This document shows, one piece after another, positions 3,263 to 3,767 of a stretch of DNA of 64,000 nucleotides. The notes under the pieces are model-generated. The model was not told the origin of the DNA. It saw nothing but the letters and a program-made list of their open reading frames with translations, and searched no databases. Every line of letters starts with the position of its first letter. The stretch's first letter is position 1. The DNA comes from Escherichia phage HY03. Location of the stretch: the sequence record NC_031047.1, one strand, 5' to 3'. The translations under genes and the position numbers were made by a program.

Positions 3263-3312
3263 TGAGATAATAGTATCACTACCTCATCAGCATGTAAACA
3301 ACTTTGTGAAAT
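3263..3312 (-). promoter_or_regulatory. T4 early-type promoter upstream of ipI
   Basis: On minus strand: -35 GTTTAC (3294-3299), 18-bp spacer, -10 TACTAT (3270-3275), same AATTTCACAAAGTT upstream element. Confidence 0.55.
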
Positions 3313-3767
3313 TATTTTAAATCATCTGCCCAATCGAGTTTAAGAGGCTCTTTGTATTCACGATCTAATACGACCGGAATTTGTACATCACCGCTAAATG
3401 ATAAGGGCCCAACATTATAAGACAATGTTATATGCGGTGTGTAATCATCAAAATCATGTGTAGCACCTAGTGCCCGCGCATACATGTGTCGACAGCGCAG
3501 ATATTCAGAATCTAGCACAAGTACAAGAGTCGATCCATCTTGTGTTTTCCATACTTCTAAATGTCCAGAAGAAGCTACTTCAAAACTTCCGCTTGATGGA
3601 ACATACGGAACATTTACTCTCGAATAACATATGGTCGAATGAATTTTTTCTCTAGGAACTGGATTAGGAACACGTAAAGAGCGCTGGAGTTCTTCCAGCG
3701 CGTCAAGTGTTAATTCTGAAAACTTAGCTGCTACATAAAGACCCGTTGAAAAGTCTTTAAATTCCAT
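3312..3767 (-). CDS. 57B: gene 57B product = Acb1, anti-CBASS cyclic-nucleotide phosphodiesterase
   Basis: 151 aa; two HxT/S motifs (KIHSTI, TPHITL) typical of a 2H phosphoesterase; position upstream of 57A and gene 1 as in T4. Confidence 0.75.

Follow-up and report, generated by a model that had tools for sequence, protein, structure and literature searches.

Gene 57B of Escherichia phage HY03 encodes a protein matching the anti-CBASS phosphodiesterase Acb1 of phage T4

Results

Gene order and features of the 57B locus

The window that we analysed is a 64,000-nucleotide stretch of Escherichia phage HY03 (NC_031047.1), in which the genes ipI, 57B, 57A, 1 and 3 all lie on the minus strand and follow one another in T4 order. 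Gene 57B is a minus-strand open reading frame of 456 nucleotides that fills window positions 3312-3767 exactly, starting with ATG, comprising 151 codons and ending in a TAA stop. This gene, its internal elements and its surroundings comprise the following features.

2952-3239, minus strand: ipI (Pfam IPI_T4)
3312-3767, minus strand: acb1 (gene 57B) coding sequence, 151 amino acids plus TAA (open reading frame, T4 identity, PF23474, PDB 7T26)
3315-3338, minus strand: C-terminal lid LDWADDLK, residues 144-151, corresponding to T4 145-152, with W146 equal to T4 W147 (T4 identity)
3423-3440, minus strand: second catalytic motif, T-P-H112-I-T114-L (T4 H113/T115); P111, H112 and T114 invariant in the alignment
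3630-3647, minus strand: first catalytic motif, K-I-H43-S-T45-I (T4 H44/T46); H and T invariant in the alignment
3767-4009, minus strand: 57A, tail-fibre assembly chaperone, immediately upstream of acb1 (Pfam PF17594 GP57, E 5e-51)
4009-4722, minus strand: gene 1, dNMP kinase (Pfam PF21448, E 5e-104; T4 annotation)
4365-4372, minus strand: candidate core of a T4 late promoter, TATAAATA, within gene 1 and ahead of 57A/57B (regex pattern match only)
4744-4773, minus strand: candidate middle promoter of the T4 (MotA-box-like) kind, AATGCTTCA-N13-TAATCT, ahead of gene 1 (regex pattern match only)

On the opposite strand of 57B, the open reading frames at 3470-3655 and 3484-3627 are short and without support. 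Between positions 2686 and 5411 the window is 97.2% identical to T4 DNA, and across its first 25 kb the best identity to any record in the phage collection is approximately 96%. Phages of the Tequatrovirus type, with E. coli, Shigella, Salmonella or Yersinia as hosts, account for all of the best matches to these 25 kb. The window therefore derives from a T4-like phage, one that the collection does not itself contain. The order 3-1-57A-57B is kept in representatives of Muldoonvirus, Krischvirus, Tulanevirus, Lazarusvirus, Pseudotevenvirus, Schizotequatrovirus and Slopekvirus.

The two phages differ at the start of the gene. T4 reads ...GAATGATGG, with two successive start codons (ATG-ATG) and a TGA stop for 57A, whereas the window reads ...GAATAATGG, with ATA followed by ATG and a TAA stop for 57A. 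Because the upstream codon is ATA and not ATG, the second ATG is the only start available in the window; the product is one residue shorter than that of T4 (151 versus 152 amino acids), so that residue numbers in the literature equal the window number plus one. The TAA stop of 57A overlaps the acb1 ATG by a single base (TAATG), an arrangement that suggests translational coupling of acb1 to 57A, and no obvious Shine-Dalgarno sequence lies ahead of this ATG.

Genes 1, 57A and acb1 probably form one transcription unit, of which gene 1 is the first member. Transcripts of 57B have been classed as middle/late (bioRxiv 10.64898/2026.03.30.715471) and cGAMP-cleaving activity is first seen some 15 min after the start of T4 infection (PMC9117128). 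The candidate middle promoter upstream of gene 1 is consistent with the former and the candidate late core with the latter. Scans of positions 2600-5600 returned 17 sigma-70 promoter-like sites, where 11.9 ± 2.9 were expected, and one terminator-like site, where 1.4 were expected.

A separate pair of minus-strand leaders, at 3234-3317 upstream of ipI and at 2870-2950 upstream of trna.4, are duplicates of approximately 80% similarity. Each has a promoter-like site, TTTACA-N17-TACTAT, with an extended -10 TG, and the two leaders are probably repeated T4 early promoters.

The 57B product is identical to T4 Acb1 and carries its catalytic and ligand-contact residues

Comparison with RefSeq revealed that the product is identical at 151/151 amino acids (100%) to residues 2-152 of T4 gene 57B (NP_049750.1), the missing first methionine being the sole difference from the annotated T4 protein. 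The DNA of the two genes differs at 7 of 456 positions, and since all seven changes are synonymous, purifying selection on acb1 is implied; if roughly a quarter of sites are assumed to be synonymous, we estimate that neutral evolution would yield such an outcome approximately once in 10^4 cases.

The product matches the Pfam family PF23474 (Anti-CBASS protein Acb1) along the whole profile (positions 1-144 of 144) with 202.7 bits and an E-value of 2.6e-60, the gathering score of this family being 27 bits. Its best match among solved structures is Acb1 of Erwinia phage FBB1, determined in the apo form (7T26) and with 3'3'-cGAMP (7T27), to which it aligns with an E-value of 4.1e-62 and 96/142 (68%) identity. 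The 2H phosphoesterase fold is assigned by homology to crystal structure 7T26 over residues 8-148 (68% identity, E 4e-62). A single-sequence AlphaFold2 model of the open reading frame had a mean pLDDT of 37.9 and was unusable, so the fold assignment rests on homology to 7T26.

Two H-x-S/T motifs, and no others, occur in the protein: KIHSTI, which spans residues 41-46 (window 3630-3647), and TPHITL, which spans residues 110-115 (window 3423-3440). Taken alone, this pair constitutes weak evidence, because 16% of composition-preserving shuffles of the protein carry two or more such motifs. The match to PF23474, the homology to 7T26 and that to T4 57B, however, place the observation far beyond chance and confirm it. 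Window residues H43, T45, H112 and T114 correspond to T4 H44, T46, H113 and T115, and the window protein has all nine of the residues Y12, H44, T46, W74, F107, H113, T115, E141 and W147 (T4 numbering). An alignment of 11 sequences, which comprised homologues from Straboviridae genera together with T4 and FBB1 and reached down to 30% identity, showed H43, T45, H112 and T114 to be invariant throughout, as were S49, R93, Y109, P111 and E137. A tblastn search of the window revealed no second Acb1-like gene.

These results agree with most of what an earlier note on this DNA had claimed. The note described a 151-aa product, which corresponds to the open reading frame of 151 codons (annotated with 152 amino acids in T4) on the minus strand, the strand having been left unstated. 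The two H-x-T/S catalytic motifs that it pointed out are the published H44/T46/H113/T115 tetrad in T4 numbering, and its placement of the gene at the position of T4 57B is borne out by the ipI-57B-57A-1-3 order shared with T4. Its identification of the product with the established Acb1 of T4 holds for all 151 residues compared with NP_049750.1 residues 2-152; alignment with T4 Acb1, which it had proposed as a check, retains the catalytic His motifs and shows every residue to be identical. It had further called the product an anti-CBASS nuclease, of which "anti-CBASS" stands whereas "nuclease" does not, the enzyme being a metal-independent 2H phosphodiesterase that acts on cyclic di-/trinucleotides and not a general nuclease.

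Every defining Acb1 feature that can be examined in silico (family score, tetrad, stacking residues, lid and fold by homology) was found, as was the position directly downstream of 57A, which is typical of the family in T4-like phages though not strictly defining, and nothing that we found contradicts the acb1 reading. We conclude that the open reading frame is almost certainly acb1 (T4 gene 57B) of a T4-like phage of the genus Tequatrovirus and that its product would act by the Acb1 mechanism. This identity is already known: the T4 protein is the founding member of the family, and for a sister phage of T4 to carry it is an ordinary feature for which an explanation already exists.

Discussion

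Proposed mechanism of signal degradation

Using activity-guided fractionation, Hobbs et al. 2022 traced the degradation of 3'3'-cGAMP in infected cells to T4 57B, and the identity of this protein as Acb1 is supported by recombinant enzymology, by H44A/H113A mutants, which are inactive, and by a T4 Δacb1 phage (PMC9117128). The deletion phage loses the cGAMP-cleaving activity and grows normally in the absence of CBASS, and on CBASS hosts it exhibits a defect of more than 300-fold (PMC9117128). An independent transposon screen showed T4 57B to be dispensable on E. coli K-12, insertions in the gene being depleted only when the host expressed CBASS (bioRxiv 10.1101/2025.11.20.689424). Acb1 blocks the activation of Cap5, Cap4 and CapV, and the T4 enzyme leaves cGG, cA4 and 3'2'-cGAMP uncleaved (PMC9117128).

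The structure of FBB1 Acb1 consists of a 2H phosphoesterase fold with a U-shaped pocket, in which Y12, W74, F107 and W147 stack on the bases, E141 reads the adenine N6, a C-terminal lid of residues 145-152 shuts over the ligand, and the scissile phosphate is held above the H44/T46/H113/T115 tetrad (PMC9117128). Cleavage takes place 3' of adenosine in a metal-independent, two-step reaction that passes through a cyclic phosphate intermediate and yields GpAp (PMC9117128). Deletion of the T4 lid (Δ145-152) abolishes the ability of Acb1 to trigger Panoptes cell death, and the authors of that work consider the lid to be needed for catalysis (bioRxiv 10.1101/2025.08.21.671373).

This mechanism was demonstrated with the T4 and FBB1 proteins and is carried over to HY03 by sequence identity. 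Late in infection, HY03 Acb1, as a small metal-independent 2H phosphodiesterase, would bind the cyclic di- and trinucleotides made by CBASS CD-NTases, namely 3'3'-cGAMP, cUA, cAAA and related signals with at least one adenosine. Its aromatic residues would stack on the ligand bases and its C-terminal lid would close, and the 2'-OH of a twisted adenosine would then attack the adjacent 3'-5' phosphodiester, with the two His-x-Thr motifs (window H43/T45 and H112/T114) providing acid-base catalysis. A 2',3'-cyclic phosphate intermediate would form and be hydrolysed to a linear product such as GpAp. Destruction of the signal would keep CBASS effectors (nucleases, phospholipases and others) switched off, such that suicide of the infected cell would be averted and the phage cycle completed. 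We thus infer that the HY03 product cleaves cyclic-nucleotide signals as the identical T4 protein does.

Comparison with known cyclic-nucleotide antagonists

The closest known system is T4 Acb1 itself, with which the HY03 gene shares its 151 amino acids, neighbours, orientation, and catalytic and ligand-contact residues, and from which it differs only in the start region and the synonymous changes described above. FBB1 Acb1, for which a 2H phosphoesterase fold with a C-terminal lid is known (PMC9117128), is 68% identical over 142 aligned residues and conserves the HxT/HxT tetrad and the equivalents of Y12, E141 and W147. It differs by 46 substitutions and a one-residue indel near residue 80, and two base-stacking positions are changed, W74 to F and F107 to Y.

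A more distant relative is the viral 2H phosphodiesterase PDE-9 (PDB 9Q2G/9Q2Y, deposited as "Anti-CBASS protein Acb1"), which matches with an E-value of 0.004 and with which both His motifs align. PDE-9 belongs, like T4 Acb1, to structural group 3 and cleaves 3'3'-cGAMP, but its lid is N-terminal instead of C-terminal, its cleavage of 2'3'-c-di-AMP is poor and, unlike overexpressed T4 Acb1, it fails to trigger Panoptes (bioRxiv 10.1101/2025.08.21.671373). Acb2 (T4 vs.4), Apyc1 and poxin are functional analogues, in that all neutralise host cyclic-nucleotide immune signals (PMC9117128; PMC12657218). They differ from Acb1 in that Acb2 sequesters the signals without cleaving them, Apyc1 is an enzyme of the metallo-beta-lactamase fold for cyclic mononucleotides, and poxin, which has another fold, cleaves 2'3'-cGAMP.

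Alternative functions of the 57B product

Besides countering CBASS, Acb1 might have a second job independent of CBASS, namely the removal of further 3'-5' cyclic or short oligonucleotides that stem from the host or the phage. We consider this unlikely; our own evidence is neutral on it, and published data are mixed. The tight stop/start overlap of 57A and 57B, conserved in at least seven Straboviridae genera/lineages, may, on one reading, reflect such a job, for which candidate substrates are type III CRISPR cA3 and the 2'3'-c-di-AMP decoy watched by Panoptes. Overexpressed T4 Acb1 degrades 2'3'-c-di-AMP and can trigger the decoy-sensing Panoptes system, yet deletion of acb1 from T4 leaves Panoptes defence unaltered (bioRxiv 10.1101/2025.08.21.671373; PMC12657218). 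If this second role were real, possession of both acb1 and acb2 would expose the phage to decoy-sensing defences while also letting it evade CBASS.

Far less probable, and rejected here, is that 57B encodes a LigT / 2'-5' RNA ligase-type enzyme that ligates or repairs RNA by acting on its ends, such as those of cleaved tRNAs. This reading owes its currency to PHROG 755, which is named "RNA ligase", a product name also found in the RefSeq record of T4 and in many phage records, and it draws on the proximity of acb1 to the phage tRNA cluster. The product also has a weak Pfam match to 2_5_RNA_ligase2 (PF13563) over residues 80-122 (E 0.11), but at 13 bits this match lies far under the 27-bit cutoff, compared to 202.7 bits for the Acb1 family, and no NCBIfam RNA-ligase model matches the product. 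The LigT branch represented by PF13563 likewise carries two H-x-T/S motifs. Its members and Acb1 have the same basic 2H-superfamily fold and a chemistry that involves 2',3'-cyclic phosphates. The weak match stems from shared 2H-superfamily ancestry. The substrates of Acb1, by contrast, are cyclic oligonucleotide immune signals and not RNA ends, and T4 57B accounts for the cGAMP-degrading activity, its deletion abolishing that activity and sensitising T4 to CBASS only (PMC9117128). The literature that we searched reports no ligase activity for T4 57B, and the actual RNA ligases of T4 are rnlA and rnlB (rnlB annotated).

The remaining proposal, that 57B works together with the 57A tail-fibre chaperone and aids fibre assembly, as the historical "gene 57" context might suggest, draws on the one-base stop/start overlap and on the 57A-57B adjacency conserved in seven Straboviridae genera/lineages, but it is hardly credible given that T4 Δacb1 matches the growth of the wild type when CBASS is absent (PMC9117128), that 57B is non-essential in a T4 transposon library on E. 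coli K-12 (bioRxiv 10.1101/2025.11.20.689424), that 57B is a member of an enzyme family whose active site is conserved, and that an Acb1 homologue of Salicola phage SCTP-2 sits apart from any 57A-like gene.

Annotation of acb1 in phage genomes

Under the Acb1 reading, the main value of the present analysis is annotation correction; it opens no new biological question. Homologues are encoded by 1469 records of the phage collection, of which 497 encode a protein at least 99% identical to that of HY03. Among 40 records sampled evenly down the ranking of these 1469, approximately 25 label the gene "hypothetical protein" or similar, 13 label it "RNA ligase" and one labels it "anti-CBASS protein Acb1". 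The earlier note was therefore right that the gene is frequently misannotated and often called hypothetical, whereas the label of tail-fibre chaperone partner that it also expected appears in 0/40 records. The typical wrong label is instead "RNA ligase", propagated from PHROG 755 and RefSeq. A correct Acb1 label would tell users of this phage, in therapy or in host-range work, that CBASS systems signalling through adenosine-containing 3'-5' cyclic di-/trinucleotides may be defeated.

acb2 and an inverted junction

The cyclic-nucleotide sponge gene acb2 (T4 vs.4) lies at 62935-63201 on the plus strand, and its product is 100% identical in amino acid sequence to that of T4. With acb1 and acb2, the window thus holds the two described anti-CBASS genes of T4. 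Gene acb2 falls inside the window because of an inverted arrangement past position ~55280. Up to ~54966 the window is collinear with T4 positions 71247-123777, and from ~55280 onwards it runs from T4 position 71168 down to 62279, inverted. The junction cuts alt, of which a 214-aa C-terminal open reading frame with an ADP-ribosyltransferase domain is left (54637-55281), and joins this fragment to a 116-aa open reading frame whose distance from tRNA-Arg is 18 nt in the relative G4498. Position 1 of the window is 6 nt beyond tRNA-Arg; in the normal arrangement it would accordingly lie just 9 nt from the junction point.

No record in the phage collection spans the junction at ~55280, the exact 33-nt junction is absent from three large contig collections (viral, metagenome and genome), and a search for inverted repeats at the breakpoints found none. 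The pattern is that of two arcs of a circular map joined with one of them flipped, and we suspect a flipped-contig artefact of assembly or concatenation, although the junction may represent a real large inversion.

Other differences from T4

Several further segments set the window apart from T4. A 620-bp segment at 1293-1930 on the minus strand occupies exactly the tRNA-Gln site of T4 and G4498 and carries a 210-aa HNH-type open reading frame (1293-1912). We detected no remnant of tRNA-Gln in any part of the window. The seven tRNAs that it retains are those for Arg, Met(cat), Thr, Ser, Pro, Gly and Leu, and a scan of the whole window at Rfam gathering thresholds returned these seven and nothing else. 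T4 segC and 5.3 are missing near window position 10221, and segD is missing near 37601-37659. The following free-standing, endonuclease-like open reading frames are absent from T4.

5409-6083, minus strand: HNH open reading frame between genes 3 and 2
30951-31607, plus strand: endonuclease-like, Cys-rich open reading frame of 218 amino acids between genes 18 and 19, with no Pfam match
44571-45263, plus strand: HNH+NUMOD3 open reading frame after uvsW

The terminase large subunit gene 17 (26087-28939, plus strand) is split exactly after the Walker-B residue Glu256. Its N-terminal part ends in a 41-aa tail that starts with Cys, its C-terminal part begins with a 107-aa leader that ends in HN and is followed by Cys257, and the insert between them holds a 199-aa TnsA-like endonuclease open reading frame in another reading frame (26967-27566). 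This layout is the "fractured gene" arrangement of a split intein with a homing endonuclease, which has already been noted for a Myoviridae gp17 (Dassa et al. 2009). The fractured gene 17 is common to approximately 15 of 661 related phage records, in which it is annotated as two terminase coding sequences.
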